Shown here: in pieces, positions 6,823-52,145 of the stretch
How positions within the stretch are numbered: the first letter of the stretch is position 1
Layout of the letters: each line of letters starts with the position of its first letter
Source of the DNA: an uncultured Gammaproteobacteria bacterium
GTDB taxonomy: Bacteria > Patescibacteriota > Microgenomatia > UBA1406 > HO2-37-13b
Length of the DNA: 64,000 nt
Direction of reading: 5' to 3'
NCBI GenBank assembly: GCA_964612595.1
Contig: CAZTFB010000002.1
Coordinates: 70,663-134,662, forward strand
Position numbers and translations under genes: made by a program
The notes under the pieces: model-generated
Databases searched by the model: none
The model's input: only the letters and a program-made list of their open reading frames with translations
What the model was told of the DNA's origin: nothing

Positions 6823-6837
6823 GGTTGTATTATATCA
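6823..6837 (-). promoter_or_regulatory. extended -10 promoter TGATATAAT placed 6 nt before the ATG (leaderless-type start)
   Basis: The minus strand reads TGATATAAT-ACAACC-ATG. The same TGATATAAT-N6-start arrangement occurs at 25815-25829 and 46277-46291. Confidence 0.5.
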
Positions 6838-6875
6838 AGCCCGCGGCTTAATAAGGTCGTGTCCGCCGCCTAGAC
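6829..6875 (+). repeat. GC-rich intergenic element (variant of the 25829-25876 element)
   Basis: ATTATATCAAGCCCGCGGC is identical to 25821-25839, followed by AAGGTCGTGTC (6853-6863) and a GCGGC/GCCGC hairpin. Confidence 0.6.
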
Positions 6876-6915
6876 TTCACATAATTAGTTAATATTTTCC
6901 TTTTAAACTACCATT

Positions 6916-7503
6916 ATGGCCTCACGGTATGAGCGAAAATTGTTTCTGGCGCATTCAATATATCACGCATTTAGTCGAGGTGTAAACAAAGCCGATATCT
7001 TTCATTCTCCTGAGGACTATGACTTTTTTACGGAAAGTTTGATGTTGTATCTCCTACCAAAAGAGGAGCTCATTGAGCATCTCTATAAGCAAGGATATTC
7101 ACAGAAAAAAATTCTGCATTTATCATCGAAAGTTGCACACCTTAAAAATTACGCAAATGAAGTTTCCCTTATTGCTTACTGCTTAATGCCAAATCATTTT
7201 CACCTACTTCTTGAACAAGGGAAAAAAACGAGTATGACCAATTTCATGAAATCATTACTTATAAGGTATTCCATGTATTACTCACGCAAGTATGAACATA
7301 TTGGCCCACTCTTTCAAGGTCGGTACAAAGCTATTAATGTATTAAGTGAAACATACTTTCGCATTGTATTTAACTACATCCATGAAAATCCACGCAGTCT
7401 GCAGTCGTTTCACAATAATCCGCAAGACTATCCTTGGTCAAGTATGCGTGGCTATAACGGAGATAACGCGCAACAATCATGGATAAAGACACGATCCTTT
7501 TAA
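6916..7503 (+). CDS. IS200/IS605-type Y1 (HUH) transposase, RayT-like
   Basis: 195 aa. HUH motif in CLMPNHFHLLLEQ, and the C-terminal YIHENP motif typical of Y1_Tnp / REP-associated tyrosine transposases. Confidence 0.75.
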   Translation: MASRYERKLFLAHSIYHAFSRGVNKADIFHSPEDYDFFTESLMLYLLPKEELIEHLYKQGYSQKKILHLSSKVAHLKNYANEVSLIAYCLMPNHFHLLLEQGKKTSMTNFMKSLLIRYSMYYSRKYEHIGPLFQGRYKAINVLSETYFRIVFNYIHENPRSLQSFHNNPQDYPWSSMRGYNGDNAQQSWIKTRSF

Positions 7504-7515
7504 GCCACGGGCTTA
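7488..7515 (-). repeat. 28-nt intergenic element, copy 1 (TAAGCCCGTGGCTTAAAAGGATCGTGTC)
   Basis: 27/28 identical to 22450-22477 and 23/28 to 10980-11007. Starts with the TAA stop of the VirD4-like gene and overlaps the last codons of the transposase on the other strand. Confidence 0.8.
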
Positions 7516-9852
7516 GAGCCTCGAGCGTTGGATAGTTTCTGCCTCTACAAGCTCGCGGGGGCGGCCATACTTGAGGCGAGAAAGCTGGATAATCGCCTCT
7601 GCAATTTTCGGATTTGCCTGTTTAGTATATTCAACAATATCGCGCGTCATATCGATTGAAAATGGTGGTATAGGCTCATTGCGCACAATTGTTTTCATAT
7701 ACGCATGATACTTGTCGACGTTTATAAGGTCTGTCTCGCTAAATACTGGTTGGAATTCGCGTGAAATATATGATGCGTCGGTAACGCCAACGCGGAAACA
7801 GATGAGTGTACCGACGTTTCCAAAGACAGCGTTTTTTACTTCATCATCCATCTGGCCGATGAATTGATTCGCGACTGTAAGCCCCAAACGATATTTACGG
7901 GCCTCAGAAAGAATGACGGCGAAATCTGGTGTCGCAAAATTCTGAAACTCATCGACAAAAAGGAAAAAGTCCTTACGCTGCTCTTCTGGAATTTCTTGGC
8001 GCGACATAGCTGCCACAAGTATCTTTGGAATAATAACAAGTCCGAGGAAAGCGGAGTTTTCCTCCCCAAGCTTACCCTTACTCAAATTAATCAGGAGAAT
8101 TTTGCGCTCATCCATAACGTTTCTAAAGTTAAAGGACGACTCTGATTGACCAATGATATTGCGGATGACTGCATTCGTCACAAAACGGCCAAACTTAGAT
8201 ACGATGTAATCAAGTGTTTCTGATTTATGAAAATCGCTGGTCTGGGCAATCTGATCAGTCCAAAATCGACGAACAATTGGATCTGTAAGCTTTGGCAAAA
8301 GTTCCTGCACATATTTTGGATCGGTCAGGATACGTACCACTTCGATAAATGTAGTACCCTCATCAGCCATAACCGTCAACATAGCATTACGCACCGTATG
8401 CTCAAAACGAGGGCCAACGATACCTGTTCGCTGAGGATCGTAAAGTTTGTACATCAAATTAATGATCGCGGAGGTAATAAAATGCTTTTCCTGTTCTCCG
8501 CGAGCTTCTAATAGATTAAGTCCGATAGGGCGCTCCACATCGGCTGGATCAAAATAAATAACATCCTCCGCCCTATCTGCCGGTATATATTGGAGGATAC
8601 CCTCAACAAGATCACCGTGTGGATCAATCACACAAACGCCATGACCTGCTTTTATGTCTTGAATTGCCATATCTTTAAGCAATTCAGATTTACCAACACC
8701 CGTTTTTCCAATGATGTATAAATGGCGGCGGCGATCTTCCTGCAAAATATGTACTTGCCGCCGCACTCCTCTATAATGCCCGTAGCCCAAATATGTCCCG
8801 CCGTCTTCGGCGACCTCAGCCGCTACGGGCGCCGTTTTTGCCTTTAACCAATGAATAAATGGCGTCTCAACAGTCTTATTCGGAAGATGAAAAATAGTCG
8901 CCAACTCCTCCGAAGATAGAACTGATACCGATTTTGCAAAAGGGAGATCAATAACAGGAAAAAATTTATAGATAAAATTAACCATAAATCCGTACTTAAA
9001 GAGTATTTTTGCCGTACCAAAACTGTTTTGCTCCGAAGCAAACTGGTTAAATGCCGTCTTCATGTTTTTGACATGCATTTCGGCTAATTTTTTATCTTGA
9101 GCTGTTGCAACAAGTCGAATTGCCACATCATATCCAGGTTTTGAAAGTTTTTCACCTATCCGCTCCAAACCCTTTTGGTCAACACTAAACGTCGCTTTGT
9201 CTGGCGAAGCCTCTTTCTTCTTTGTTTTCGCCACATACGACTTTCCTGCCTCTTTATATTTAGATTCTGTGGTGCGCATTAAAACCTGAATAATTGCGCC
9301 TTCACCCTCACTTAGCTTAGATAGCGGTGAAGTCACAGCCGAAAGTGAATCGTAGGGAAGCTCCTTGTATGTTTTTATAGGTTCAAAATCATCATGCTTT
9401 AAGTGCAGCGCAGCATATGCAACATGCCCCTTCTCGCTAAAAATATGCTGTTCCTCTACAACAGCAATATCACACGCTGGATAAAACGCATATATTTGCT
9501 TCTCAACAAGATCCTTAAGTTTATTTGGCACCGTCACATAAAAAGCAATCTTCCCTGGCGTGCCAATAATTTCAAATCCAAGCGTATCTTCAATATCAAG
9601 AAATGACCAAAACCCGCTGTTTTTCAGCGAAGCAAACGAGGCGAACATCTGCTCGGCGGCATCGATTTTTAGCTCGTTATCCTTTGGCAGTCGAATCTCC
9701 ATCGTTACCGACTCTAGCGCGTGTTCTTCGCGCTTTTTCATCTTGATGAGCATAACGACCACATACAATACTGCCGCCGAAAATGCGAGCGCGACGACGA
9801 CTGCGATGAATATGACAAATGTAAGAATAAGGCTATCTACTATGCCTCCCAT
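7513..9852 (-). CDS. type IV secretion coupling-protein-like ATPase (VirD4/TraG/TraD family)
   Basis: 779 aa with an N-terminal TM helix, Walker A GKTGVGKSE, a Walker B-like FFLFVDEFQNF, and C-terminal TraD/TraG-type organisation. Confidence 0.7.
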   Translation of the reverse strand: MGGIVDSLILTFVIFIAVVVALAFSAAVLYVVVMLIKMKKREEHALESVTMEIRLPKDNELKIDAAEQMFASFASLKNSGFWSFLDIEDTLGFEIIGTPGKIAFYVTVPNKLKDLVEKQIYAFYPACDIAVVEEQHIFSEKGHVAYAALHLKHDDFEPIKTYKELPYDSLSAVTSPLSKLSEGEGAIIQVLMRTTESKYKEAGKSYVAKTKKKEASPDKATFSVDQKGLERIGEKLSKPGYDVAIRLVATAQDKKLAEMHVKNMKTAFNQFASEQNSFGTAKILFKYGFMVNFIYKFFPVIDLPFAKSVSVLSSEELATIFHLPNKTVETPFIHWLKAKTAPVAAEVAEDGGTYLGYGHYRGVRRQVHILQEDRRRHLYIIGKTGVGKSELLKDMAIQDIKAGHGVCVIDPHGDLVEGILQYIPADRAEDVIYFDPADVERPIGLNLLEARGEQEKHFITSAIINLMYKLYDPQRTGIVGPRFEHTVRNAMLTVMADEGTTFIEVVRILTDPKYVQELLPKLTDPIVRRFWTDQIAQTSDFHKSETLDYIVSKFGRFVTNAVIRNIIGQSESSFNFRNVMDERKILLINLSKGKLGEENSAFLGLVIIPKILVAAMSRQEIPEEQRKDFFLFVDEFQNFATPDFAVILSEARKYRLGLTVANQFIGQMDDEVKNAVFGNVGTLICFRVGVTDASYISREFQPVFSETDLINVDKYHAYMKTIVRNEPIPPFSIDMTRDIVEYTKQANPKIAEAIIQLSRLKYGRPRELVEAETIQRSRL

Positions 9853-9905: not shown

Positions 9906-10325
9906 ATGAAGACTCTTGGACTGTCAATAACTGCTATTTTCCTCCTGTTGTTTTTGGTTATAAATGTCTATGCGTCTCAACTGTTTCCTCCACTTTACTA
10001 TCGCGTGGTTGGCATACAAGACATCTCAGCAGCTGAAGATTTCTTGCGCTACATAAAAGGAACTCCGATGCATAAACAGCAATATGATTATTTTAACGAG
10101 AAATTTAACAATGGGCTTATTGAGGCACGATTGGCTGAAGAAGAAAAAAATGGCGCTTCAAAAGAGAAATATCGCACCATTCTGGAGAAAAATCCAAAGA
10201 GCCGCGATGCGCTTATTATGCTCGCGCTGTACGAACTACGCGGTGGAAACGAAGAAGAAGCTGCTCGCTATTATACCCAAGCCAAGCAAATCGACCCCTG
10301 GCTTAAAATTGAATCGCTGGAATAG
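9906..10325 (+). CDS. small secreted/anchored TPR-like protein
   Basis: N-terminal hydrophobic signal/anchor. The C-terminal part (ALIMLALYELRGGNEEEAARYYTQAKQIDP) looks like a TPR repeat. Confidence 0.4.
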   Translation: MKTLGLSITAIFLLLFLVINVYASQLFPPLYYRVVGIQDISAAEDFLRYIKGTPMHKQQYDYFNEKFNNGLIEARLAEEEKNGASKEKYRTILEKNPKSRDALIMLALYELRGGNEEEAARYYTQAKQIDPWLKIESLE

Positions 10326-10354
10326 AAGACCACAACCTGTCGAGGATCGTGCCC
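10326..10354 (+). repeat. imperfect hairpin element AAGACCACAACCTGTCGAGGATCGTGCCC
   Basis: 24/29 identical to 45578-45606. Both start immediately after a TAG stop. The left arm matches the perfect terminator hairpin at 19982-20018. Confidence 0.7.
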
Positions 10355-10979: not shown

Positions 10980-11007
10980 TAAGCCCAGGTCTTAAAAAGG
11001 TCGTGCC
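10980..11007 (+). repeat. 28-nt intergenic element, copy 3 (TAAGCCCAGGTCTTAAAAAGGTCGTGCC)
   Basis: 23/28 identical to 22450-22477 (reverse complement). Preceded by TGGAATA, as is the element at 10326. Confidence 0.7.
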
Positions 11008-11031
11008 TTTTGTACTTGAAAGAGTTGTGCG

Positions 11032-13920: not shown

Positions 13921-13949
13921 GGCACGAACCTGACAGGACCTGGTCCTGC
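13921..13949 (-). repeat. hairpin element GCAGGACCAGGTCCTGTCAGGTTCGTGCC
   Basis: Lies 3 nt after the recombinase stop. Its 3' half CCTGTCAGGTTCGTGCC parallels CCTGTCGAGGATCGTGCC at 10336-10353. Confidence 0.6.
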
Positions 13950-13952
13950 AAT

Positions 13953-14795
13953 TTAAAGCTCGCCGAGCTTTTCTTTACGCTCGGTTTCTTGCTTTACAAG
14001 CTCCAGGTACTTTTCTGTAGAAGAGAGTCTTCGATGACCTACGATCTTTGAGATGTAGGAAATAGAAGCCCCGTTCATAAGCTGATAAGCAATAAATGTA
14101 TTGCGAAGATCCTGTACCTTCGCATTATCAATACCAACTTCGCGGAAACATCGTGTAATGATGCTTCGAATGTTTCGCACAAGAAGTTGTCGACCTGTTT
14201 TAGTGACAAAGAGGAAATCTGTCTCGCTATCATGGCGGGACTTGATATAACTCTCGACAGCCTTTTCAACGGCCTTATTCATCGGTATAAATCTATCGCT
14301 AATTTTGAGCCCTTCCTTCGTGATGTCACCAAGTTTAATTTCAGCAAGCTCTCCAATTCTTACTCCTGTTTGTAGCAAGAGCTCGATCATTGCGTATGTT
14401 CTTTTATCTGACTTCGAAAAGTCCCTTAATGCTCGATATTCGAGCTTAGAAAGTATGCGCGGTGGAGCCTGATTGTACTTTGGATGAGTTACCTCCAAAG
14501 AAGGATTCTGAGCGATAATTTGCTCCTGTTTCAGATAACGGAAAAAGGTTCTTATAGAGTTAAGCTTGCGCGAAGCGGATTTTTTTGTATATCCTTCACC
14601 AAGAAGCTTAGAGATAAAACCGTCAATGTCGTCTTTTTTGACTTCTTTGATGTCGGTCTTCTCAACTGACGCTATATATGCAATAAACTGCTCCAAGTCT
14701 TTTTTATAAGCCACAACAGTGTGCTTCGACTTGTCTTGTGCAGTCAGATGCTCTATAAATGATTGTACCAGTGTTCGTAAATCTGATGTTATCAT
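13953..14795 (-). CDS. tyrosine site-specific recombinase (XerC/XerD-like integrase family)
   Basis: 280 aa with an N-terminal SAM-like domain. The catalytic region has TGVRIGEL (Arg) and GHRRLSSTEKYLEL (H-x-x-R ... Y). Confidence 0.8.
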   Translation of the reverse strand: MITSDLRTLVQSFIEHLTAQDKSKHTVVAYKKDLEQFIAYIASVEKTDIKEVKKDDIDGFISKLLGEGYTKKSASRKLNSIRTFFRYLKQEQIIAQNPSLEVTHPKYNQAPPRILSKLEYRALRDFSKSDKRTYAMIELLLQTGVRIGELAEIKLGDITKEGLKISDRFIPMNKAVEKAVESYIKSRHDSETDFLFVTKTGRQLLVRNIRSIITRCFREVGIDNAKVQDLRNTFIAYQLMNGASISYISKIVGHRRLSSTEKYLELVKQETERKEKLGEL

Positions 14796-16069: not shown

Positions 16070-16822
16070 CTAGGCGCCGTTCTTTACAACCACATAGAGA
16101 TTACCCATGCCTGTTGTGTGAGGCGCAGCCTTTGCGATTAAAGATTTGTTCCAGAAAAATCTGCTTAATGTCGAAAGAATAAAAAGTCTTCTCAATACTT
16201 CTCCCTGCCTATAAACTTGAGGCTCTGTGCGAAAAATACGCTTTAACAGCAGTGCGAGTTCATTTGTATAAAATTCTTTGAGATGAAACGGATTGTACGT
16301 TCCACCAAAAAAAACATCGAAAAACTTTTTGTTTGGTGTTGAGAGAAGCAGAATTCCACCTGGCTTGAGGCACTGGTGCATAAGTTTAAGAAATTTTTTG
16401 TACTCCTTTACATGTTCGACTGTCTCAAACGAGACAATCACATCAAACTGATCTGTAGAGTTTGAAAGAAAATCGATAGCGTCTGAACACACAAATGTTG
16501 TGTTCTTTCTTCGGTTTTTTAATCCGTACTTTGTTTTAGCAACCTGGATGGCCCTAGATTCATTATCAACACCCGTTACTCTTGTCGCTTTTTTGGCGAG
16601 CAATTTGCTTCCGTAGCCTTCTCCACATGCTATATCTAAAACCTTTTTTCCTTTCACATACTTTAAGGCAAACGCATAGCGGTGATGGTAATCCTCAAAT
16701 CTGTTTTGGAAAGCCCCTTTCTTTTCAGGGTCGATGTGTTCATCTTGGCCTTTGATAGCAATGTTACGGAGTATGGATTGTGTAATATTTTTCACAATGA
16801 GAATAATTCTATCACATGGCAT
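16070..16822 (-). CDS. class I SAM-dependent methyltransferase
   Basis: VLDIACGEGYGS motif I and DVIVSFETVEHV motif. Start uncertain (16822 or 16849). Confidence 0.8.
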   Translation of the reverse strand: MPCDRIILIVKNITQSILRNIAIKGQDEHIDPEKKGAFQNRFEDYHHRYAFALKYVKGKKVLDIACGEGYGSKLLAKKATRVTGVDNESRAIQVAKTKYGLKNRRKNTTFVCSDAIDFLSNSTDQFDVIVSFETVEHVKEYKKFLKLMHQCLKPGGILLLSTPNKKFFDVFFGGTYNPFHLKEFYTNELALLLKRIFRTEPQVYRQGEVLRRLFILSTLSRFFWNKSLIAKAAPHTTGMGNLYVVVKNGA

Positions 16823-18611: not shown

Positions 18612-19994
18612 TTGTATTATAAAGGAATGACGCCTAAGCGCTTAATTGTACTCGTCTTTTTATTGATTATTACGCTCGCCTTTTACTTTAAATCGATGCT
18701 GTACATTGATCCTGACCTAGGATGGCAGCTAAAAACAGGTGAAATAATTCTTTCAAAGGGTTTTCCGCGTACAGATCCTTTCTCATATACTATGTCTCAT
18801 TTTGCGTTTGTTCCGCATTCGTGGCTGACGGATGTTGTTTTCCACCATGTGTTCCAGCTCGCTGGACTATCGGGACTCGCATTTGTTACTAGCATTGCTC
18901 TCACAATCACTGTAGTAGTTATTTGCGGGGTTATATGGCAAACATGGATGTTTGTACCCGCTCTGTTGGTTGCTGTGCATTTAATGCCATATGCAGGGAT
19001 GCGCCCACAAACGTTTAGCTGGCTTTTTTTTGCGCTTCTGCTTCGAGTGCTCGTTGATAAAAAAGCCGAACATGTCTATGGGCGCTATTTACCCATATTG
19101 CTTTTTGTGTGGGCTCAGCTTCATGGTGGGTTTTTAATTGGCATAGTGCTATTAGCCATCTGGGCGTTTTTTGACCTCAAAAAGCGCGCCTTAATAGTAT
19201 TGTTCGCCACAGTCGCAACACTTGTGAATCCCTATGGGATCGCGCTGTGGCGCGAAGCACTAATGACATTTTTCTCGCTATCCACGCGGGCAAGCGTCAA
19301 TGAGTGGTCGCCAACGCTTGCGCGCCTTGATCTACGTCTTGGGCTTGTTATGCTCTTGCCCACATTCCTTATCGTTCGCTACCCTCGCGCATACTCGCCA
19401 TTCTTTAAACTTACATATGTCATACTCTTTCTCACCATGCTTTCTTCAAGCAAACTATTTCCGTTTTGGCTTATCATGGCAGGCTATACAATGATCATAG
19501 GCTTAACTACTCTTGAAAAAAGTACTGTGCAGATCAAAGGTGCAGCTAAACGCCTCAATACACTTCTATATGTTCTTTTTCTTCTTATTGCAATTAATGC
19601 AGCCGTTCTCATCATATCAACGTTTAAAACCTACAAAACTCTGGATGAAGATGTGTATTACCCGAAAAATGCTGTAATTTTCCTAAAAACACATCCGCCC
19701 CAAGGTAATATATTTGCCCCCTTCGGCTGGGGCGGTTACCTCATATGGAAACTCCCAGAAAAGAAGGTCTTTATCAGTGGACATATGCCACATTGGGAGC
19801 ATATTCTTGAAGATTATATTAAGATAATCAAGCTGGAAAGCCCTTTTGAGAAAATCACCACATCCTATAATATCTCAACGGTGCTTGTTCAAAAAAATAA
19901 AACAAACTTTGCTGCATTGACTACTTATCTTAAGAAAAATGGCTGGAAAACGATTTATGAAGGTGGCGTATCGGAGATATTAATAAGACCGTAA
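18612..19994 (+). CDS. polytopic membrane protein (possible O-antigen-ligase/GT-C-like)
   Basis: 460 aa with more than 10 hydrophobic helices and a soluble C-terminal domain. Start uncertain (TTG 18612 or ATG 18627). Confidence 0.45.
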   Translation: MYYKGMTPKRLIVLVFLLIITLAFYFKSMLYIDPDLGWQLKTGEIILSKGFPRTDPFSYTMSHFAFVPHSWLTDVVFHHVFQLAGLSGLAFVTSIALTITVVVICGVIWQTWMFVPALLVAVHLMPYAGMRPQTFSWLFFALLLRVLVDKKAEHVYGRYLPILLFVWAQLHGGFLIGIVLLAIWAFFDLKKRALIVLFATVATLVNPYGIALWREALMTFFSLSTRASVNEWSPTLARLDLRLGLVMLLPTFLIVRYPRAYSPFFKLTYVILFLTMLSSSKLFPFWLIMAGYTMIIGLTTLEKSTVQIKGAAKRLNTLLYVLFLLIAINAAVLIISTFKTYKTLDEDVYYPKNAVIFLKTHPPQGNIFAPFGWGGYLIWKLPEKKVFISGHMPHWEHILEDYIKIIKLESPFEKITTSYNISTVLVQKNKTNFAALTTYLKKNGWKTIYEGGVSEILIRP

Positions 19995-20018
19995 CCTGGC
20001 ACAGGTTACGGTCTTATT
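19982..20018. terminator. bidirectional stem-loop terminator (17-bp perfect stem)
   Basis: AATAAGACCGTAACCTG-GCA-CAGGTTACGGTCTTATT followed by TT. Contains the stop codon of the upstream gene. Its left arm resembles the elements at 10326 and 45578. Confidence 0.75.
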
Positions 20019-22415: not shown

Positions 22416-22440
22416 GACACGGTCCTCTCTTAGCCCGCGC
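22416..22440 (-). repeat. GC-rich box element (GCGCGGGCTAAGAGAGGACCGTGTC)
   Basis: Parallels GCGGGCTAGAAAGGGGTCGTGTC at 25851-25873. Lies in tandem with the 28-nt element at 22450. Confidence 0.5.
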
Positions 22441-22449
22441 TAACTCATT

Positions 22450-22477
22450 GACACGATCTTTTTAAGCCACGGGCTTA
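22450..22477 (-). repeat. 28-nt intergenic element, copy 2 (TAAGCCCGTGGCTTAAAAAGATCGTGTC)
   Basis: 27/28 identical to 7488-7515. Starts with the TAA stop of the 215-aa pilin-like gene. Confidence 0.8.
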
Positions 22478-23122
22478 CTGTATGCCAGGTAGGCCGAGGC
22501 TTCGAGAGATGAACTGGATGATGAATACAGAGAACAGTGCGAATAACAAACCTACGATTGAGCCTATTAATATCCTTCTCCCTTGATTGAGTCTTCCCGC
22601 ATCTGAGCGCGATGTTGCAATAACCGCAGTACCATAGATAAAGCTTAAGAATGCAATACCGCCGATAATGGAGAAGAAAAAGCTCGACATTTGGGCTGTA
22701 AATTCTCCCGGTTGTGTCGATAGACAACCAAACCCGGTATAGTAATGGTTTGGGTCTGGTGTTGGGATAAGTCCCGCTTCGTTTGTCAGTGTTCCCAGAG
22801 CAGTTGGATCTACATCTGCACCCTCTATACCAACAACTTCTGGATATAAACAGCGCACACATGCTTGCCAACTTCCTGGAACCTTCGTGACGCCCTGACA
22901 ATACCCACATAAATCACAGTTAGCAATGCTCTTATGTGGCTCGTCTGTGGGAAGGGGCGCTCCTAGCCCTGGGGTCGGTGTTGCCGCTGTTGAAAAAGGA
23001 GTTGGGGTTGCGGGCACAGCAGTTGGGGGTATTCCTTGCGCAAAAGCAGAGGATATCAAGCCGAGATGTGAGGTACAGATGACAAAGAAATAGATACTAA
23101 TGATGACTTTGCGCAGACTCAT
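22475..23122 (-). CDS. Cys-rich pilin-like protein (VirB2/TrbC-like C-terminal topology)
   Basis: 215 aa: signal peptide, Pro/Thr-rich linker, a CDLCGYCQ...CVRC cysteine cluster, and a C-terminal TM, charged loop, TM module. Confidence 0.45.
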   Translation of the reverse strand: MSLRKVIISIYFFVICTSHLGLISSAFAQGIPPTAVPATPTPFSTAATPTPGLGAPLPTDEPHKSIANCDLCGYCQGVTKVPGSWQACVRCLYPEVVGIEGADVDPTALGTLTNEAGLIPTPDPNHYYTGFGCLSTQPGEFTAQMSSFFFSIIGGIAFLSFIYGTAVIATSRSDAGRLNQGRRILIGSIVGLLFALFSVFIIQFISRSLGLPGIQ

Positions 23123-25814: not shown

Positions 25815-25829
25815 ATGGTGATTATATCA
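25815..25829 (-). promoter_or_regulatory. extended -10 promoter TGATATAAT 6 nt before ATG (leaderless-type)
   Basis: The minus strand reads TGATATAAT-CACCAT-ATG. Confidence 0.5.
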
Positions 25830-25876
25830 AGCCCGCGGCGCAATCGGGGTGCGGGCTAGAAAGGGGTCGTGTCTAT
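25829..25876 (+). repeat. 48-nt hairpin element, copy A
   Basis: AAGCCCGCGGCGCAATCGGGGTGCGGGCTAGAAAGGGGTCGTGTCTAT is 44/48 identical to the reverse complement of 31276-31323, with a compensatory C-G to A-T change in the 7-bp stem. Confidence 0.8.
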
Positions 25877-25931
25877 TAGCAGACACACTTGCCTCTTGCT
25901 AATCTATAATTATTGGTATAAAATATTCTGT

Positions 25932-28043
25932 ATGAAAGGCACCTACGTTCCACCGGAAGAGGGACAAGGCAATCCGATCGAACAATTTACGGTCAATCTG
26001 ACTGCCTTAGCAAAGAAAAACAAACTCGACCCTGTTGTGGGTCGAGATAATGAGGTGCGACGCTTAATACAAATATTATCGCGTCGCACGAAAAACAACC
26101 CTGTGTTGCTTGGTGACCCTGGTGTGGGAAAAACCGCCATTATTGAAGGCCTCGCCCAACGCATTGTCGCTGGCGATATCCCCAACACACTCAAGCATAA
26201 AGAACTTCTATCAATAGACCTAACAGGGCTCGTCGCAGGCGCAGCTTTTCGCGGTGAATTTGAACAGCGACTAAAAGGTCTTCTAACCGAGCTCGAAAAA
26301 GCAGAAGGAAAATACATTATTTTTATCGACGAGCTCCACACAATCGTAGGCGCTGGATCTGCCCAAGGCTCCGCAGACGCCGGCAACATTCTAAAACCCG
26401 CGCTCGCCCGCGGAACCCTACACGCCATCGGTGCAACGACCATTCGTGAATACCGCCAATATATTGAAAAGGATCCAGCGCTTGAGCGCCGATTTCAACC
26501 TGTTATGGTTGATGAGCCCTCACCCGAAGATACGCTCACTATTCTCCGTGGCATTAAAGAAAAATATGAAACACATCACGGAATCAAAATTTCTGACGAT
26601 GCACTTATCGCTGCGGTCGACCTCTCCACACGCTATATTACCGACCGCTTTTTACCAGACAAAGCAATTGACCTCATCGATGAGGCAGCAGCAGGCTCCA
26701 GAATTGAAATAGATTCGATGCCGACCTCGCTTGATGAGATAAAGCGCAAGAAAGTTCAACTCGACATTGAACTTGCGGCGCTCAAAAAAGAACAAAATGT
26801 CGAGGAGCGCCGCGCAAAACTTGAGGCGGAGCGCACAGAGCTCGATGCAACATTCAAAGAACTTGAAACAAAATGGGAAGAAGAAAAACGCATTATCAGC
26901 GAGCTCCAAAGCTATCGCCTCCAGCTTGACCAGCTTAAATCTGAGCTCGAAATTGCAGAGCGCGATGCTGAACTCGAAAAAGCCGCTGAGCTCAAGTACA
27001 GCAAAATTCCAGCACTTGAAAAGAAAGTTTCTGAACTTGAAAAAGAATGGCAAAAAAAACCAGAAGCAGATCGCCTTCTCAAAGAACGTGTTACTGAAGA
27101 AGACATTGCACGCATCGTATCTCGCTGGACAAACATTCCAGCACAACGCCTTCTTTCTACCGAGTCAGAAAAACTAGCTAAACTTGAAGATGAGCTCAAA
27201 AATAGAGTCGTCGGCCAAGATCATGCCCTAACAAGACTTGCCCAAGCAATTCGACGATCCCGTGTTGGTCTGAGCGATGAAAATCGCCCCATAGGTTCAT
27301 TTCTATTCTTGGGCCCAACAGGTGTCGGAAAAACTGAAACAGCAAAAGCCCTTGCTGAAGCCCTATTTAATGATGAAAAAGCCCTTATTCGCATTGATAT
27401 GTCTGAATATCAAGAACCCCATACAATCGCGCGCCTCATCGGGGCCCCACCAGGCTATGTGGGATATGATGAAGGAGGCCAGCTAACTGAGGCCGTGAGG
27501 AGAAAACCATACTCTGTTATCCTCTTTGACGAAGTGGAAAAGGCACACCCACAGGTGTTCAATACGTTTTTGCAGATTCTTGATGATGGAAGACTCACTG
27601 ATGGAAAGGGCCGTACGGTTAACTTTAAAAATACAGTACTTATTTTAACCTCTAACTTGGGCTCACAATCGAAAAATATAATGGAAGAAGTCCGTCGCTT
27701 CTTTAAGCCTGAGTTCATAAATCGACTTGATGGGATTGTAGAATTTAATGCACTCGATGAGAAAATTATGAGTAGTATTATTGAGCTTCAGCTCAAAGAA
27801 ACAGAGGCGCGCCTCGCAAAAAACAGCCTGCAGGCAACCTTTACCGATGCGCTCAAAAAACATCTCCTCGCGGTCGGGTTTGACGATATGTACGGCGCCC
27901 GCCCGCTCAAGCGCATGATAAACGAGCTCATTCTTGATGAAATTGCACTGATGATTGTTGAAGGAAAGGTTCATGAAAAAGACAAGCTAACTGTTGATTT
28001 TAAGAATAATCGCGTTCACATTGAAAAAACTACTATAAACTAA
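25932..28043 (+). CDS. clpB: ATP-dependent chaperone ClpB (lacking the canonical N-terminal domain)
   Basis: Two AAA+ modules ([16 protein letters not shown]), a long coiled-coil middle domain, and the [13 protein letters not shown] motif only about 45 aa from the proposed ATG start. Confidence 0.9.
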
Positions 28044-28054
28044 TCCTGCTGTGC

Positions 28055-28083
28055 TTGACTACGCTATTAATATAGCCTATAAT
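28055..28083 (+). promoter_or_regulatory. sigma70-type promoter TTGACT-N17-TATAAT for cassette ORF 2
   Basis: Begins 12 nt after the clpB stop. Followed by AAGGAGG and ATG 28124. Confidence 0.65.
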
Positions 28084-28123
28084 ATTACCTTCACCGACCC
28101 TGTTCTAGCCCAAGGAGGCAAGG

Positions 28124-28507
28124 ATGAGCAGCTCAAAGCCGGTACCGATCTTGGTCTTGCGCCAGGTCAGAATCGTGACCTGGCTGTCCGGAAGTACTGA
28201 GCCCAGGAGGGCTCGGGTCGAAGGCCATGCTGATGAACTTCTCGAGCTCCTGGGGCAATCCAATGATGAGCTCGGGAGCACCTCAGCGCTCGTGGTGCAG
28301 GTGTCGGCACATGTTGTGCGAGTTTTACTGCATGACGGCTCACCAGTTGCCCGGTTCTCGGTCGATACCGAGCAAGCCGGCGCGACAATCGTCTTCGTCG
28401 ACAGCAAGGGATGGCTCCAGAGCCTTCTTGCCATCGGCGCGGAATCGATCAACCCCGAGGACTGGCCAAACAGCTGGGTTCGGACGGCCTTCAAGGCCGA
28501 AGACTGA
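28124..28507 (+). CDS. GC-rich cassette ORF 2, unknown function
   Basis: 127 aa with AAGGAGG 5 nt upstream and strong GC3 bias in this frame. The opposite-strand ORFs look like GC-rich artefacts. No recognisable family. Confidence 0.55.
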   Translation: MSSSKPVPILVLRQVRIVTWLSGSTEPRRARVEGHADELLELLGQSNDELGSTSALVVQVSAHVVRVLLHDGSPVARFSVDTEQAGATIVFVDSKGWLQSLLAIGAESINPEDWPNSWVRTAFKAED

Positions 28508-28525
28508 CGACCTCAAGTCGTCCAT

Positions 28526-28565
28526 GGCCCCGGTCCGCTTCGGCGGATGCGGGGCCTTTCTCATT
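28526..28565 (+). terminator. rho-independent terminator of cassette ORF 2
   Basis: GGCCCCG-G-TCCGC-TTCG-GCGGA-TG-CGGGGCC followed by TTTCTCATT. Confidence 0.75.
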
Positions 28566-28604
28566 CCCCAAAAATTCCTCTTTACCTCCTAAAAACCTGC
28601 TATA

Positions 28605-28943
28605 ATGGATATTCCAATGACACCAAAAGACATAACCCAGGATCAATTCGAGCAAGAAGTCGTTCAACATAAAGGCGTCGTTTTCGTTGACTTCCACGCA
28701 GAATGGTGTGGACCATGCAAAATGACCGAGCCTATTATCGAAGATCTCGCCACAAATTCGAGTTTCAAAGACAAGGTTAAGTTCGTCAAAGTCGATGTTG
28801 ACAAAAACCAAGACCTAGCCGGACAATACAGTGTTTTTTCCATTCCTACGTTCATCACCTTCAAAGATGGCGAACCCGTCAACCAGTTCTCTGGCGCGCG
28901 CGATCGAGGAGGTTTCGAGGCAGAGCTCAATAAATTTGTGTAG
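28605..28943 (+). CDS. trxA: thioredoxin
   Basis: 112 aa with the WCGPC active site. Confidence 0.9.
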   Translation: MDIPMTPKDITQDQFEQEVVQHKGVVFVDFHAEWCGPCKMTEPIIEDLATNSSFKDKVKFVKVDVDKNQDLAGQYSVFSIPTFITFKDGEPVNQFSGARDRGGFEAELNKFV

Positions 28944-28947
28944 TTTC

Positions 28948-29382
28948 TTATCTTGCATCAAACATTCTGACTGCTTTCCCATGCGCAATCTTTAGCTTAA
29001 TATGTGCCTTTCGTAGAATAAATAAACAAAATTCCGCAAGCCAACGCACAGAGGTAGATATAGGATTTTTTAACCCTTGCATCACCTTATCATCACTTAT
29101 CGGCAACTTTACACTGTTATACGTAGTAAATTGAGAATGGCCCGTTGATGCAACCCCTTCTTCTTCTACTTCTTGGGGCACCTCAATCTTTTCAGGTCTA
29201 GGCTCAACATAATGTTTAACTTCCGGCTCAGGCTCATGTTCGGTTACCTCATGAATCTCGATATGATCTTTTGAGACTTCTGGGGGGCGCATGGGTGAGA
29301 TTTTTTCTGGATTCCCATAGCTGATTTGTTGCGCTTGTACGCTTTGAATAAGATCGGAAATATCGGTATAATTTTGGGGCAT
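28948..29382 (-). CDS. hypothetical protein (acidic Pro/Glu-rich centre)
   Basis: 144-aa ORF 18 nt downstream of the 418-aa orphan. No recognisable domain. Confidence 0.35.
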   Translation of the reverse strand: MPQNYTDISDLIQSVQAQQISYGNPEKISPMRPPEVSKDHIEIHEVTEHEPEPEVKHYVEPRPEKIEVPQEVEEEGVASTGHSQFTTYNSVKLPISDDKVMQGLKNPISTSVRWLAEFCLFILRKAHIKLKIAHGKAVRMFDAR

Positions 29383-29399
29383 AAAAAGAGTATAACAAG

Positions 29400-30656
29400 T
29401 TACGCGGCTTTAGCGATAGGCTTCTTACTCCTGTCAATACTCGGCTTCCTTCCCGCGTCATAATCCCGCTGACATAACTCACATATAGCACATGGACCGA
29501 TTTTAACTTTTTTAGCTCCACATCCACCTTTTCCAAACTCGCGGCAATCCTTGTCATCCTCCCATTTTGATGTGTCCCTCCACGCTTCTCTATCAATCGC
29601 CTGTTCCCCAAAAACGCTGTACATTGCAGCCATATGCGGCGACATATCACCAAGCAGGCCGATATACATGTTTGATGACTGAGTATCACATACAAGACTC
29701 CCATAGAAGAGTGGGGCGTCGTGTTGTCCGTAGTATTGCGCAATGTACGAACCTATATCTATGAGATTGCCATCTACTACAGGTGCAGCCATTTTAGTTG
29801 CTGCTTCATCCTGCTCATCTCTTAAAAGCGTAGCCTGTTCAAAGAGATAGTCGCGTGCCTGCTTCGCTGCCCTCGTTATTTCTGCATATCGAAATGGAAC
29901 TTCCTGTTTATCGACAGTGGCTAACTCTGACATTAGTCCAATGAAATGTTGGACATACTGACCAAGGTCTTGGCGCACACGAGCGGCAAATGCTTCTGAG
30001 GCGTCAACCTTATCTTGAGTTAAACCAAGTAGTTCGTATATGCGGCCATGGTCTGCGGAGCCACTGAAAGCCAATGGCCGCACGAGCATTTCTTCTGTAG
30101 TTTCTGGGGCAGATAAGTTACCGCTAAAACCTGCTGATTGTTGCATCTGATCGTACTCTTTTTGAGCTTTTCTAAATCCAACATCGTCGTGTCGATGCAT
30201 GATGTTCGTTTGGATAATACGGAAGCTGCCGTCTATGTTCGGAATCTTGCGGAACGTAAAAGTAAAGCGACGATCACCGTAACCTTCTTTCGACGGAGAA
30301 GAAAGGACTACCATTGAAACATTCTGGTCAAGTAACATTTTATATGCCTCTTGATAACCTATAACTTCATAGTGTTCTCGTGACCAATGTCCGTACTTTT
30401 CAATAGTCCGTTGCCACGATGATTGAAGATCGAGCCCTTGCATAACCCACGCTCCGTCTTGTCGTAGTTCACCCTCTAGCTCACTAAAGGGAACATAGCC
30501 TGCATGTTCATTAAGGAGGCCGATCATCTGTCCATCAAGAAACTGACTGTGGAAAGATTCGGGAAGCTCTCGAAGTCGAGCGACTTCTAAAGGAATGTCG
30601 TAAAGGCGATCCAACGAATGCCCCTCTTGGGGCTGTAATCTTTCAGCTTGTTGCAT
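29400..30656 (-). CDS. orphan protein with C-terminal cysteine cluster (zinc-ribbon-like)
   Basis: 418 aa. The C-terminus CREFGKGGCGAKKVKIGPCAICELC has a CxxxxxxC...CxxC pattern. Composition is Q/E/A/G/R-rich, and hand-counted GC of two 60-nt lines is 48-53%, above the flanks. Confidence 0.5.
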   Translation of the reverse strand: MQQAERLQPQEGHSLDRLYDIPLEVARLRELPESFHSQFLDGQMIGLLNEHAGYVPFSELEGELRQDGAWVMQGLDLQSSWQRTIEKYGHWSREHYEVIGYQEAYKMLLDQNVSMVVLSSPSKEGYGDRRFTFTFRKIPNIDGSFRIIQTNIMHRHDDVGFRKAQKEYDQMQQSAGFSGNLSAPETTEEMLVRPLAFSGSADHGRIYELLGLTQDKVDASEAFAARVRQDLGQYVQHFIGLMSELATVDKQEVPFRYAEITRAAKQARDYLFEQATLLRDEQDEAATKMAAPVVDGNLIDIGSYIAQYYGQHDAPLFYGSLVCDTQSSNMYIGLLGDMSPHMAAMYSVFGEQAIDREAWRDTSKWEDDKDCREFGKGGCGAKKVKIGPCAICELCQRDYDAGRKPSIDRSKKPIAKAA

Positions 30657-30749
30657 ATCCCTGCGCGGGGTAGGATTTGGAAGGTAGTCGGACTATAACC
30701 GTTGCGGCACAGCTCAGGAATTTCACCTGGATTCCCCGTTCCAAAACCG

Positions 30750-31277
30750 TTAAACAAATAATTCTTCGTTTGTATTATGCAGGCGCCCCATGGCGTAGAG
30801 CATATCTGACAAACGATTCAGGTATTGTAGCATACCATCTGCGTTTTCTGCCTCGATCGTCGTACTGTTTTTTAAAAATGTCGTCACTTTTCGCTCTGCG
30901 CGCCGACATACAGCGCGCGCTATATGGCACGCAACGCTCAGCTGCGTGCCCTGGATGAGAATAAACTTTGTACCAGTTGGTTTTCTTGATTCAACATCGT
31001 CAATGTACTTTTCAAGCACATTAATATGTTCCTTTACCGTCGCCATATCAACCGGCGCACCACACAATACGCTCATCATTACATAGAGATCCCGCTGTAT
31101 GAGCGTTATGAGCCCCTCATCACCTTTTGCTTCCGGGTGGCTTACTATCATACCAAGCCACGACGTAAGCTCATCAATATCACCATACGCTTCAATTTGC
31201 GGGTCGTCTTTTGGGAGTCTTTTTCCTCCATAAAGTCCCGTTGTTCCTTTATCGCCACTTTTGGTATAGATTTTCAT
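30750..31277 (-). CDS. ATP:cob(I)alamin adenosyltransferase, PduO type
   Basis: The N-terminus MKIYTKSGDKGTTGLYGG is the hallmark of PduO-type adenosyltransferases. About 175 aa. Confidence 0.85.
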   Translation of the reverse strand: MKIYTKSGDKGTTGLYGGKRLPKDDPQIEAYGDIDELTSWLGMIVSHPEAKGDEGLITLIQRDLYVMMSVLCGAPVDMATVKEHINVLEKYIDDVESRKPTGTKFILIQGTQLSVACHIARAVCRRAERKVTTFLKNSTTIEAENADGMLQYLNRLSDMLYAMGRLHNTNEELFV

Positions 31278-31323
31278 AGACACGACCCGTTTCTAGACCG
31301 CACCCCGATCGCGCCGCGGTCTT
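31276..31323 (-). repeat. 48-nt hairpin element, copy B
   Basis: The reverse complement AAGACCGCGGCGCGATCGGGGTGCGGTCTAGAAACGGGTCGTGTCTAT fills the nrdJ/adenosyltransferase gap and ends in the ATG of the latter. Confidence 0.8.
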
Positions 31324-37196: not shown

Positions 37197-37589
37197 TCAG
37201 TTAACAACGGTGTCCGTAAATAGATCTTTGAACACTTCGATTTTGAGTAGTTGTTTTTTTGAAAGTTTATTGCGTTTCTGAATTGATTCGCGAATATGAT
37301 CTTCTGCCTGTGTCTCCATCTTTTTTAGATAGTCAATAAGCCTGTCCTGATCATCCTCTTCTAGGTCGTAAATTGAACTATTTATTATTTCGTCAATCTT
37401 TCCAATCTTCCACAACGACCGCACAACTTCATCATGCATTTTGGCAATGGTAGAAATGTCGCCGACGAGCGGTCGGATTTTGAATCCCATCATTTGGATG
37501 TCACGAACCATCGCCTCAAGCGACAATCCCTGCTCCTCGACTTCACTATGGATTTGTTTTATAATATCGAAAGCAGTTCTTCGTCTCAT
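37197..37589 (-). CDS. hypothetical protein
   Basis: 130-aa ORF, helical and charged, with no recognisable motif. Confidence 0.35.
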   Translation of the reverse strand: MRRRTAFDIIKQIHSEVEEQGLSLEAMVRDIQMMGFKIRPLVGDISTIAKMHDEVVRSLWKIGKIDEIINSSIYDLEEDDQDRLIDYLKKMETQAEDHIRESIQKRNKLSKKQLLKIEVFKDLFTDTVVN

Positions 37590-40781: not shown

Positions 40782-42050
40782 ATGAAATACTTTGTAAAAA
40801 CTTTTGGATGCCAACAGAATGTTGCTGATTCTGAACGTGTGGAGGCGCGCCTGCAGGCGCGCGGAATGACACCTGCGTCTTCGTACGAAGACGCAGATCA
40901 GATTGTCATCAACACGTGTATGGTACGCGAGTCTGCAGAAAACCGCGTCTATGGTTTGGTTGATAATCTAAGCAAACTGAAAGAGAAAAAACCAACACTC
41001 AAGATTGTGGTGACAGGCTGTATGGTTGGTGTGGCATTTCGTGACAAAACCGGCAAGGTGTTAAAAAAAATCAAAAAAGCCATGCCTGCTGTCGATGAGT
41101 TTATGCCTATCGAAGAGGTGGGATTTGATTTCGCACCTGTGCGTACGAGCAAGACTGCTGCGTGGGTTCCTATCTCAAATGGGTGCAATAATTTTTGCAC
41201 CTTTTGTATTGTGCCCTTTACGCGCGGGAGGGAAGTTTCCCGCCCATATGAAGATATAATTGAAGAGTGCAAAGAACTTAGAAAAGATGGGTACAAAGAA
41301 GTTACGCTTCTTGGACAAAACGTAAATTCATACGGTGCTGATCTTATCGTTGGAGAAAAGAATATTCAAGTGATGCGCGATCTCCCCGATAAGACATATT
41401 TCGATGAGAAGGCCGTGGAGCCCCAGACACGATCTAAAAAAGCCACGGGCTTCTCGGTCAATGGTCGTACCATAGAACCAGTATATGTAAAACATCTTGG
41501 TAGATTACGTATTCCAACTCTTTTCCCCCATCTTCTCGATGAGATCGCGCAGATGGGATTCGAGCGTGTGGATTTTGTATCCTCAAACCCATGGGATTTT
41601 TCTGATGAAGTTATTGAGGTAATGGCACGTAACCCAAACATAACACGCGTCCTCCACCTCCCCCTTCAACATGGAGATAACAATGTTCTCAAGCGCATGA
41701 ATCGTTGGTATACTCGTGAGGAATATATGACAATCATCGATAAAATACGTTCAAAAATCCCCGATATGAAATTCACAACCGACATCATTGTTGGGTTTTG
41801 CGGAGAAACACCTGAAGAGTTCGAAAGTACCGTCGATATATGTAAAAAAGTGGGTTTTTATAAAGCATATGTCGCTATGTATTCACAAAGACCTATGACT
41901 GCGGCAACAAAAATAATGGCTGATGATGTGCCGCATGCAGAAAAAAAGCGCCGATGGCAGGTCTTAGAAAAGCTTATCAACAAGCCCCACCTCGAGTCCT
42001 TTGGAGAGGAACAATACCATATGCACAAAAAAACAAGCTATGCACATTGA
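40782..42050 (+). CDS. miaB: tRNA methylthiotransferase MiaB-like (radical SAM)
   Basis: N-terminal TFGCQQNVADSE, the radical-SAM CNNFCTFC cluster, and the MTTase domain order. Confidence 0.8.
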   Translation: MKYFVKTFGCQQNVADSERVEARLQARGMTPASSYEDADQIVINTCMVRESAENRVYGLVDNLSKLKEKKPTLKIVVTGCMVGVAFRDKTGKVLKKIKKAMPAVDEFMPIEEVGFDFAPVRTSKTAAWVPISNGCNNFCTFCIVPFTRGREVSRPYEDIIEECKELRKDGYKEVTLLGQNVNSYGADLIVGEKNIQVMRDLPDKTYFDEKAVEPQTRSKKATGFSVNGRTIEPVYVKHLGRLRIPTLFPHLLDEIAQMGFERVDFVSSNPWDFSDEVIEVMARNPNITRVLHLPLQHGDNNVLKRMNRWYTREEYMTIIDKIRSKIPDMKFTTDIIVGFCGETPEEFESTVDICKKVGFYKAYVAMYSQRPMTAATKIMADDVPHAEKKRRWQVLEKLINKPHLESFGEEQYHMHKKTSYAH

Positions 42051-50783: not shown

Positions 50784-52145
50784 ATGAACTGGAAAGAATT
50801 CTTAACATATGTTGAAGCACAAGAATCATCTCCGGTTTTGTCATCGGTTCTCATTAATACAAAGCTTGAGGGTGTGGATGGGGACACAGTAACAATTTCT
50901 CACGAAAACAACGGAGGGAAAATGTTTCTAGACGGACGCAAGAAGCTTATTGAGGGTCACCTATCAACGTATCTTAATACAAAAACAGAAATTGTTGTTG
51001 TGGTAAGGGAATCAAAGAAAAAGAAAGTGGCCACAGTTCAAAACAGCGCTTCACCCGAAGAACCCTCGTCCGGCCTTCCTCTTATGGACTACAAAGAGTC
51101 GCTCGATGGGGTGCTACAAAAGGCGGGCATTCAGGATCGATACACCTTTGATAATTTTGCGGTTTCCCCAACAAACCACGTTGCACATGCGGCCGCACAG
51201 GCTGTAGCTGATAATCTTGGAAAGATATATAACCCGCTCTTTATATATGGGACTGTTGGAGTAGGTAAAACACACCTTTCGCACGCTATCGCAAACCACA
51301 TACTGCAAAAAAATATTCATAAAAAGGTTTTGTACTGCACATCCGAGCAGTTCACAAACGACCTTGTAGATTTTATTCGTGTAAAAAACACCAAAGAACT
51401 TAGAAAGAAATATAGAAACCTTGATCTTTTAATTATTGATGACGTGCAGTTTATAGCAGGAAAAAGCTATGTTCAAGAAGAGTTCTACCATACGTTTAAC
51501 TCGATTGTGCAGGGGGGCGGCCAAATAGTATTGATTTCCGATCGCCCGCCAAGGGAGATAAAAGAGCTTGAGGACAGGCTGCGCTCCCGCTTCTCGGGCG
51601 GCCTTATCCTTGATATTCAAAAACCAGATTTTGAGCTCCGTACGGCAATTTTGCTTATTAAAGCTGAGGAGCGCCACATCGACATAGATATTGATGCCGC
51701 AAAGGAAATTGCAGAAAGAATTGTAGACTCAAGAGAGCTCGAAGGAACGCTTTTGCGTCTTCTTTCTGTGTCGCTTATGGAGTCACAAAGCAATAAGATA
51801 ACAATGGAAACGACAAGGGGGGAATTGGGCCACCAAGCAACGCGCATAATCCAAAACACAACCCCTCAAGATATTATTAAAAATGTGTGCACCTACTATC
51901 ATCTTAAGCCTTCTATTATTAAGAGCGAAACACGAAAACAAGAAATATCGAACGTGCGACAGATTATTATGTATATCTTGCGAAAAAAACTAAAAGCAAA
52001 CTACGAAGATATTGCCTTTGTGCTTAATAGGAAAGACCACACCACCATCATACATGGGGTAGAAAAAATCCAAGAAAAAATTCTTGCTGATGACCGATTT
52101 GGTGAGGAAGTAGAAAAAGTTGCCTCTTTTTCTTTGTCAACATAA
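50784..52145 (+). CDS. dnaA: chromosomal replication initiator DnaA
   Basis: YTFDNFAV, GTVGVGKTHL (Walker A), LLIIDDVQF (Walker B), and a C-terminal DNA-binding domain (DHTTIIHG). Confidence 0.95.
   Translation: MNWKEFLTYVEAQESSPVLSSVLINTKLEGVDGDTVTISHENNGGKMFLDGRKKLIEGHLSTYLNTKTEIVVVVRESKKKKVATVQNSASPEEPSSGLPLMDYKESLDGVLQKAGIQDRYTFDNFAVSPTNHVAHAAAQAVADNLGKIYNPLFIYGTVGVGKTHLSHAIANHILQKNIHKKVLYCTSEQFTNDLVDFIRVKNTKELRKKYRNLDLLIIDDVQFIAGKSYVQEEFYHTFNSIVQGGGQIVLISDRPPREIKELEDRLRSRFSGGLILDIQKPDFELRTAILLIKAEERHIDIDIDAAKEIAERIVDSRELEGTLLRLLSVSLMESQSNKITMETTRGELGHQATRIIQNTTPQDIIKNVCTYYHLKPSIIKSETRKQEISNVRQIIMYILRKKLKANYEDIAFVLNRKDHTTIIHGVEKIQEKILADDRFGEEVEKVASFSLST

Follow-up and report, generated by a model that had tools for sequence, protein, structure and literature searches.

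We analysed a stretch of 64,000 nucleotides (hereafter the window; contig CAZTFB010000002.1, positions 70,663 to 134,662), deposited as DNA of an uncultured gammaproteobacterium, in which a 48-nt hairpin element occurs twice, once before clpB (copy A) and once before the adenosyltransferase gene pduO (copy B). The results indicate that A and B are no private pair; they are long-form members of a dispersed family of units resembling repetitive extragenic palindromes (REPs). Together with a transposase gene at 6916-7503, this family very probably makes up a REP-associated tyrosine transposase (RAYT) system, in the arrangement known as a REPtron, in a Microgenomates genome of the candidate phyla radiation (CPR). 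The repeats are thus a known kind of selfish or domesticated repeat and not a gene-specific RNA leader. A mobile REP-like unit was one of the options left by the first-pass annotation of this sequence, and it is the one favoured here by a RAYT-like gene with inverted flanks, by the dispersed family and by a repeat that changes with its transposase.

The product of the 6916-7503 gene contains the Pfam domain Y1_Tnp ('transposase IS200-like'; E 1.4e-10), and its best NCBIfam model is REP_Tyr_transpos (E 1.3e-11), with transpos_IS200 reaching only E 0.039. In an alignment of 29 homologues, the HUH motif (H94-F-H96), Q101, the FQ motif and the YIHxNP motif (Y154/H156/N158) are invariant, the catalytic-type tyrosine being Tyr154 of YIHxNP. 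An AlphaFold model of the 195-aa protein, built from the same alignment (pLDDT 90.8, pTM 0.87), has as its top Foldseek match in the Protein Data Bank (PDB) the chain 4er8_A (E 2.6e-6, TM 0.55/0.64, 194 columns). The structure 4ER8 is the E. coli RAYT with a bound REP hairpin; the ISDra2, IS200 and IS608 transposases rank behind it in the fold search, at E 7e-5 and weaker. A single copy of the Y1 gene is present in the window, as at each related locus. Its last codons (..T-R-S-F-stop) are supplied by the repeat at its 3' end, whose tail, spacer and hairpin encode them in reverse complement.

A search for further copies of the element recovered more of them, both in the window and at related loci (cited below by our own locus numbers, L118 and so on). 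Allowing one mismatch, AAGCCCGCGGC has 8 matches in the window against 0.65 expected, the tail GGTCGTGTC has 18 against 5.6, and the same build of hairpin, spacer and tail is found at at least ten sites (Table 1). Seven further members, and the transposase-like gene itself, had not appeared in the first-pass annotation. Across sub-families, the unit consists of a GC-rich hairpin, a spacer of 4-7 nt and a tail of 9-10 nt, G(G)WTCGYGYC. The short form is a 27-nt unit, composed of a 13-nt palindrome (AAGCC-CGY-GGCTT), a 5-nt, mostly A-rich spacer and the tail GRTCGTGTC. The long forms, to which A and B belong, have the stem base and tail of the short form and a 7-bp stem around a 14-nt loop, GGCGCRATCGGGGT, which is nearly invariant in five of the six long copies and holds a sequence resembling the tail in inverted form (GGCGCGATC; its reverse complement is GATCGCGCC). 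In copy A the loop reads GGCGCAATCGGGGT and is followed by the spacer AGAAAGG and the tail at 25865-25873. The coordinates and strands first given for the pair (25829-25876, plus; 31276-31323, minus) and its 44/48 identity were reproduced; a degenerate pattern spanning both copies matched these two sites only in the window, with 0 expected from shuffles, and copy B is identical in L118-L122 and L144. A third sequence, at 6829-6875, had been described as a truncated relative. It is present as reported, but it is not truncated, being a 27-nt short form (6837-6863). The orientation of the elements in the left replichore is mixed (five minus, four plus).

Table 1. Members of the REP-like family and the transposase gene in the window.
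Feature	Coordinates	Strand	Details
Short-form REP, 5' flank of RAYT gene	6837..6863	+	AAGCCCGCGGCTT AATAA GGTCGTGTC
RAYT-like Y1 HUH transposase gene, 195 aa	6916..7503	+	between the inverted copies 6837-6863 and 7488-7514
Short-form REP, inverted relative to 6837-6863	7488..7514	-	overlaps last codons and stop of RAYT gene
Further sub-family member	10326..10353	+	AAGACC..AACCTG..AGG with ATCGTGCC tail; directly past stop of gene 9906-10325(+)
Degenerate or hybrid member	10981..11007	+	AAGCCCAGGTCTT AAAAA GGTCGTGCC; one stem mismatch
Sister sub-family member	13921..13947	-	AGGACCAGGTCCT GTCA GGTTCGTGCC; hairpin AGGACC-A-GGTCCT
3' stem arm, spacer and tail	22416..22440	-	GCGCGGGCT AAGAGA GGACCGTGTC
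Short-form REP	22450..22476	-	begins at TAA stop of pilin-like gene 22475-23122(-)
Copy A, long-form REP	25829..25873	+	stem 25830-25836 / 25851-25857
Copy B, long-form REP	31279..31323	-	stem AGACCGC/GCGGTCT; occupies nrdJ-pduO spacer
Short-form REP	41426..41452	-	within, and antisense to, MiaB-like radical-SAM gene 40782-42050(+)

The association of the repeats with the gene is not confined to the window. A protein search returned 1,215 relatives, the closest of them 43-72% identical; one homologue bears the JGI name 'REP element-mobilizing transposase RayT', and more distant ones carry Patescibacteria and Collierbacteria labels. We examined the DNA of four fetched homologue loci and of L133, which came from a metagenome scan (L123, L125, L127, L129 and L133). 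Inverted hairpin-plus-tail units flank all five distinct homologue genes (P0002, P0004, P0008, P0010 and the L133 gene; 54-68% identity), and the flanking unit differs along with the transposase protein. It is AAGCC-CGT-GGCTT with GRTCGTGTC at L127 and L133 (P0002), AGGACC-W-GGTCCT with GGWTCGCGCC at L125 (P0004), AAGACC-A-GGTCT with a different tail at L123 (P0010), and a long form on both sides at L129 (P0008), where the 3' unit is almost identical to copy A. The L125 type is also that of the window member at 13921-13947. RAYT genes are known to be always flanked by two inverted REPs with which they co-evolve, complementary mutations keeping the REP palindromes intact (PMC2817692, PMC6006769). 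The window, L127 and L129 have the neighbouring genes for a VirD4-like ATPase and an FAD/NAD oxidoreductase in common, and their RAYT proteins are 58-68% identical; one copy per locus and synteny despite this divergence fit a long-resident, vertically inherited gene and not to a hopping insertion sequence. The RAYT segment itself (6837-7514) is inverted relative to its neighbours when compared with L127 (9926-10602) and L129, and the breakpoints lie inside both flanking inverted REPs, which suggests recombination between them.

The palindrome of the unit is preserved. Two of the four differences between A and B fall, as first reported, on paired stem positions, the third pair of the 7-bp stem changing from C/G to A/T (AGCCCGC/GCGGGCT to AGACCGC/GCGGTCT); by a rough estimate, two of four random differences would strike one of seven pairs and leave it complementary in ~1.2% of cases. 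The first-pass annotation took this compensatory change to imply selection on the structure. Reasonable as this reading is, the six long forms alone do not secure it statistically: 97.6% of their 7-bp stem cells are paired, but the A/B switch is their sole double change and 75 of 500 shuffles do as well. The wider family does covary. Pairing holds in 98.9% of the cells of the 5-bp stem in 18 distinct short-form units, drawn from several genomes, and two stem pairs switch between A-T and G-C or C-G through double changes (11 cells), values reached by 0 of 500 shuffles and destroyed by sliding the partner, part of this covariation being sub-family structure rather than independent events. The short-form stems contain Watson-Crick pairs only, with no G-U intermediates, a pattern no less compatible with a DNA palindrome that can fold on either strand than with an RNA helix. 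In single-stranded DNA the hairpin forms on both strands of both copies, the element strand reaching -12.5 (A) and -12.3 (B) kcal/mol (z = -3.9 and -3.2). The copy within the MiaB-like gene reads AAGCC-CGT-GGCTT in the window and AAGAC-CGT-GTCTT in L130 (249-275) and L131 (337-364); this switch from C-G to A-T, an independent case of that seen between A and B, substitutes D for A and V for G in the protein and keeps the palindrome, in a variable, lineage-specific insert. Paired changes could also arise without selection on each pair, by correction of quasi-palindromes through template switching or by replacement of one sub-family by another. A pseudoknot between loop and tail of the long form was considered and rejected: with G-U allowed, pairing is possible at all nine positions, but no double change backs it and one position is broken in three of the six copies.

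We propose the following mechanism by analogy with the RAYTs of E. coli, Stenotrophomonas and Marinomonas (PMC8266576). The RAYT would bind the hairpin formed in single-stranded DNA, with the conserved tail replacing the GTAG head in recognition and in the choice of the cleavage site, and its activity would copy or move the units and so spread them. If the motif must lie 5' of the hairpin, as in the known systems, the active strand would be the complement, GACACGAYC-N5-hairpin. The need for a foldable palindrome would explain the compensatory change from C-G to A-T between A and B. Individual copies are gained, lost or decayed across orthologous sites, and we infer from the analogy that the RAYT mobilises them.

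The places in which the units are found bear on what else they might be. We surveyed 28 units, defined by a strict pattern, in the window and related loci: 13 of them either overlap a co-oriented upstream gene's stop codon or start 0-7 nt from it, often supplying the TAA; in six the hairpin end stands 14-15 nt away from a divergent gene's ATG, directly against its -10 box; 21 are intergenic and seven lie inside open reading frames (ORFs). The copies do not, then, always precede start codons, a possibility raised when only A and B were in view; other members follow stop codons, lie within genes or adjoin unrelated genes. The preference for stop codons would suit hairpins that arose in place as host-evolved 3'-end elements (terminators, attenuators or mRNA stabilisers) without mobilisation by a Y1 enzyme, as would a perfect 31-nt palindrome between convergent genes (19985-20015) and the action of REPs at mRNA 3' ends reported for other bacteria (PMC3733652). 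Such an origin is nevertheless unlikely. No T-run follows any of the 28 units and a terminator scan gives no prediction at the elements; the six copies in divergent promoter regions and the seven inside ORFs do not fit, and a simple terminator has no use for a conserved tail of 9-10 nt at a constant distance. The inverted copies at every Y1 homologue, and their covariation in sequence, would be left unexplained. A role at 3' ends is compatible with a REP/RAYT system as a secondary function, and a location downstream of genes is described as typical of REPs (PMC3733652).

Several window members illustrate these placements. The unit at 7488-7514 begins at the TAA stop of a VirD4-like gene, 7513-9852(-), that at 13921-13947 lies 6 nt past the stop of gene 13953-14795(-), and the hairpin end of 6837-6863 adjoins the extended -10 box (TGATATAAT) of a divergent, leaderless FAD-oxidoreductase gene. 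The 31-nt palindrome, AAGACCGTAACCTG-GCA-CAGGTTACGGTCTT, begins at a TAA stop; half of it recurs with a REP tail in the member at 10326-10353 and in the relatives of that member at L127 7087 and L129 18906.

A structured leader, processing site or riboregulator of clpB and pduO, the first explanation offered for the 48-nt element, has some points to recommend it. Both copies face a downstream gene, and copy B does end at the ATG of pduO (31277), from which independent gene calls give a 175-aa product; its repeat unit ends 1 nt before that codon. The RNA hairpin is stable (-19.3 kcal/mol), and the almost invariant loop could pair with the tail over nine positions, G-U included. The evidence at the two sites makes this explanation very improbable all the same. 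For clpB, the in-frame GTG at 25869 is no more than the mechanical start of the ORF, the gene calls and the L130 ortholog using the ATG at 25932. Downstream of copy A comes the predicted clpB promoter (TTGCTA-17-TAAAAT, 25896-25924), which stops 7 nt short of this ATG, and between copy and promoter stands an inverted repeat, TTAGCAGAC-N9-TCTTGCTAA, at 25876-25902 (+), kept upstream of clpB in three genomes (window, L130 and L131). This repeat resembles the CIRCE/HrcA heat-shock operator. With promoter and CIRCE-like repeat downstream of it, copy A is most likely outside the clpB transcript and is probably not part of a clpB leader; its ortholog is present in L130 and absent upstream of clpB in L131. 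For pduO, the spacer to nrdJ measures 52 nt including the long element in the window and L144, 19 nt with a bare hairpin (AAGCCCAGGGCTT) in L131 and L143, and 9 nt (GGTGTGCCT, which resembles a decayed tail) in L130 and L142. Copy B is therefore missing or reduced in four loci from two related lineages with nrdJ and pduO intact, and so is not a leader that these genes require. The same element flanks the transposase gene in L129 and adjoins unrelated genes, its RNA folding z-scores are unremarkable (-1.5 for A and -2.1 for B), no Rfam covariance model matches at A or B at either gathering or permissive thresholds (E up to 10), and no compensatory change backs the pairing of loop and tail.

The positions of A and B thus give no sign of a function dedicated to clpB or pduO control; they reflect where units land or survive in a very compact genome, right behind stop codons or against the -10 box of leaderless promoters. 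Copy B is nonetheless a stable hairpin right before the pduO start codon, presumably on the nrdJ-pduO transcript, and as transcribed structures such hairpins may affect neighbouring genes. The hairpin end of copy A adjoins an extended -10 box, again TGATATAAT, of a divergent ABC-ATPase gene, whose promoter L131 has as well, without the repeat. The possibility that tail or hairpin serves the adjacent -10 as its -35 box was considered and discarded, the spacing being unfit and the same promoter standing without a repeat in L131. A TATAAT-like hexamer (at least 5/6), often after TGn, ends 4-10 nt before the ATG in 21 of the window's 61 genes, against 5% at random positions, so that leaderless mRNAs from extended -10 promoters seem to be common in this genome. 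Around copy B the gene order is nrdR, B12-dependent nrdJ, REP copy B, the pduO adenosyltransferase gene, an AdoCbl-II (B12) riboswitch at 30674-30747 (-) (50.8 bits; gathering score 36.5) and a 418-aa gene without a Pfam match (29400-30656), which may encode a cobalamin transporter.

An ordinary insertion sequence of the IS200/IS605 type, with the solo copies as miniature derivatives akin to MITEs (miniature inverted-repeat transposable elements) or PATEs (palindrome-associated transposable elements), would account for the Y1_Tnp domain, the weak profile matches to the ISDra2 transposase and the hairpins at both ends of the gene. We consider it highly unlikely, since the end hairpins of IS200/IS605 elements share one strand (IS608 and ISDra2; PMC8266576) and those flanking the gene here are inverted, the best family and fold matches are to a RAYT and not to an IS200 transposase, a syntenic gene, one per locus, at 58-68% protein identity suggests long vertical inheritance and not a recent transposition of the entire unit, and no tnpB gene is present. 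Duplex sites bound by a transcription factor or a nucleoid protein, or DNA-uptake signals, are scarcely credible: the 13-nt perfect palindromes (AAGCC-N3-GGCTT) do resemble dimeric operators and several adjoin -10 boxes 14-15 nt from a divergent ATG (at least six loci), but each unit is asymmetric, its tail standing on just one side, the sub-families differ freely in stem sequence with pairing kept, which speaks for a folded structure and not for base-specific reading of a duplex, long-form loops span 14-33 nt, uptake sequences are far denser than the ~1 unit per 6-7 kb here, and the link to the Y1 gene would go unexplained.

Several observations weigh against a REP/RAYT system. The REP_Tyr_transpos score is 44.6 bits against a curated cut-off of 80, and the protein is only 11% identical to 4ER8; sequence and profile searches of the PDB never reach 4ER8 and give only a weak match to ISDra2 TnpA, so the relationship is a distant one. 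The gene in the window is flanked by short forms, whereas A and B are long forms. The GT(A/G)G head (GTAG or GTGG), a defining feature of classical REPs, adjoins the hairpin in no copy on either strand. Copy number is modest, at ~10 in 64 kb, all of them in the left 42 kb, with no copy noted at 42-64 kb in the window and none by strict scans in the flanking sequence of L140 and L141. Instead of a recent insertion, the nrdJ-pduO site may represent an old element whose decay took a different course in each lineage, with the tail-like GGTGTGCCT kept in L130 and a hairpin in L131. The related sequence scanned amounted to ~250 kb. In a 596-Gb genome collection, the pattern AAGCCCGYGGC-N(5-30)-GRTCGTGTC proved too loose, giving chance matches in high-GC genomes, and L047 was the only true copy among the matches listed; a metagenome scan gave no match for the long-form loop plus tail, and a second one, for the short form, gave 8 loci with no new long forms.

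Some units are more elaborate than the hairpin-spacer-tail plan. The 3' arm at 22416-22440 can pair with the 5' arm of the adjacent short REP at 22450-22476 to form a composite or nested element, so that a larger REP-like stem encloses a short REP in 22416-22476. In the L130 ortholog of copy A (16371-16437) the loop encloses an additional 19-nt hairpin (CCTGCCTGCCGCAGACAGG), and nested hairpins seem to be one way in which the units grow. At L125, a 'two-tailed' symmetric unit (10982-11022) of reverse-complement tail, hairpin and tail forms one long palindrome inside a citrate-lyase-like gene.

The host is a CPR bacterium. The DnaA of the window shares 79% identity with its counterpart in 'Microgenomates bacterium OLB23' and ~55% with Roizmanbacteria proteins. 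A complete chromosome labelled 'uncultured Gammaproteobacteria', OZ246401.1 (938,475 bp; L047, L123 and L131), is syntenic with the window, and its NrdJ falls in the same 90%-identity cluster as the window NrdJ; as the window DnaA is closest to Microgenomates proteins, the label of this chromosome is probably wrong. Gene orientation in the window flips from mostly minus to mostly plus near 37.3 kb (~37200-37430), where the cumulative GC skew has its minimum; dnaA (50784-52145) and dnaN lie 13 kb from this minimum, and the replication origin may not be beside dnaA.

To our knowledge, REP/RAYT systems have been studied almost only in Proteobacteria, and the literature that we searched holds no description of one from CPR bacteria. 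That a system of functional appearance occurs in a genome of ~0.9 Mb where intergenic space is almost lacking means that such repeats persist under strong streamlining, and that they then contribute to stop codons, to the surroundings of promoters and even to coding sequence. For annotation, conserved hairpins of this kind should not be taken for riboregulators of the genes beside them. A bipartite repeat without GTAG, together with RAYT homologues whose flanking repeats are graded, also provides a natural series for the reading of hairpins by Y1 enzymes. Taken jointly, the observations might describe a CPR-specific REP/RAYT lineage with a tail instead of the GTAG head, with chimeric long forms that carry an inverted tail in the loop, with units built into gene boundaries (stops, the last RAYT codons, -10 boxes, a coding region), and with a RAYT segment that inverts between its flanking REPs; we offer this composite only tentatively and hold it to be doubtful as a whole. 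Its gene-boundary part is illustrated by the coding-region palindrome, kept at the cost of amino-acid changes.

In comparison with known systems, the gene and its hairpins share with IS200/IS605 elements (IS608, ISDra2) the Y1 HUH catalytic fold and adjacent hairpins that would be recognised as single-stranded DNA. They differ in that the end hairpins are inverted, the gene is syntenic, with one copy per locus and without tnpB, and the numerous solo repeats fall well short of an insertion sequence in length. The tail contains TCGTG or TCGCG and lacks the CGTC tag of the CGTC-tagged REPs (Di Nocera 2013, PMC3733652). Another parallel is the atypical structures without GTAG beside some TnpA_Y1 subclasses (subclass 2.6 and class 3; Quentin et al. 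2018, PMC6006769), a study with 0 mentions of Patescibacteria, Parcubacteria, Saccharibacteria or the candidate phyla radiation. Those proteins likewise have short insertions in the core, but the repeat structure here is well defined and strongly conserved and not weak. From the REPtrons of E. coli (yafM with REPs and bacterial interspersed mosaic elements) and the REPs and REPINs of Pseudomonas and Stenotrophomonas, the present system differs in the absence of a GT(A/G)G head, in place of which it has G(G)WTCGYGYC, 9-10 nt long and 4-7 nt from the hairpin foot. It differs further in the very short stem of its common form (5 bp with a 3-nt loop), the long forms with their conserved 14-nt loop holding an inverted tail-like sequence, the rarity of inverted doublets (REPINs), a protein with a helical insert of ~35 residues (residues ~45-80) that scores below the curated RAYT threshold, and a CPR host of ~0.9 Mb that is no proteobacterium. 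It resembles these REPtrons in the Y1 HUH gene, one copy per locus, between two inverted GC-rich palindromes, in a repeat dispersed mostly between genes and often just past stop codons, and in a repeat sequence that co-varies with the transposase, its palindromes being kept by complementary changes.

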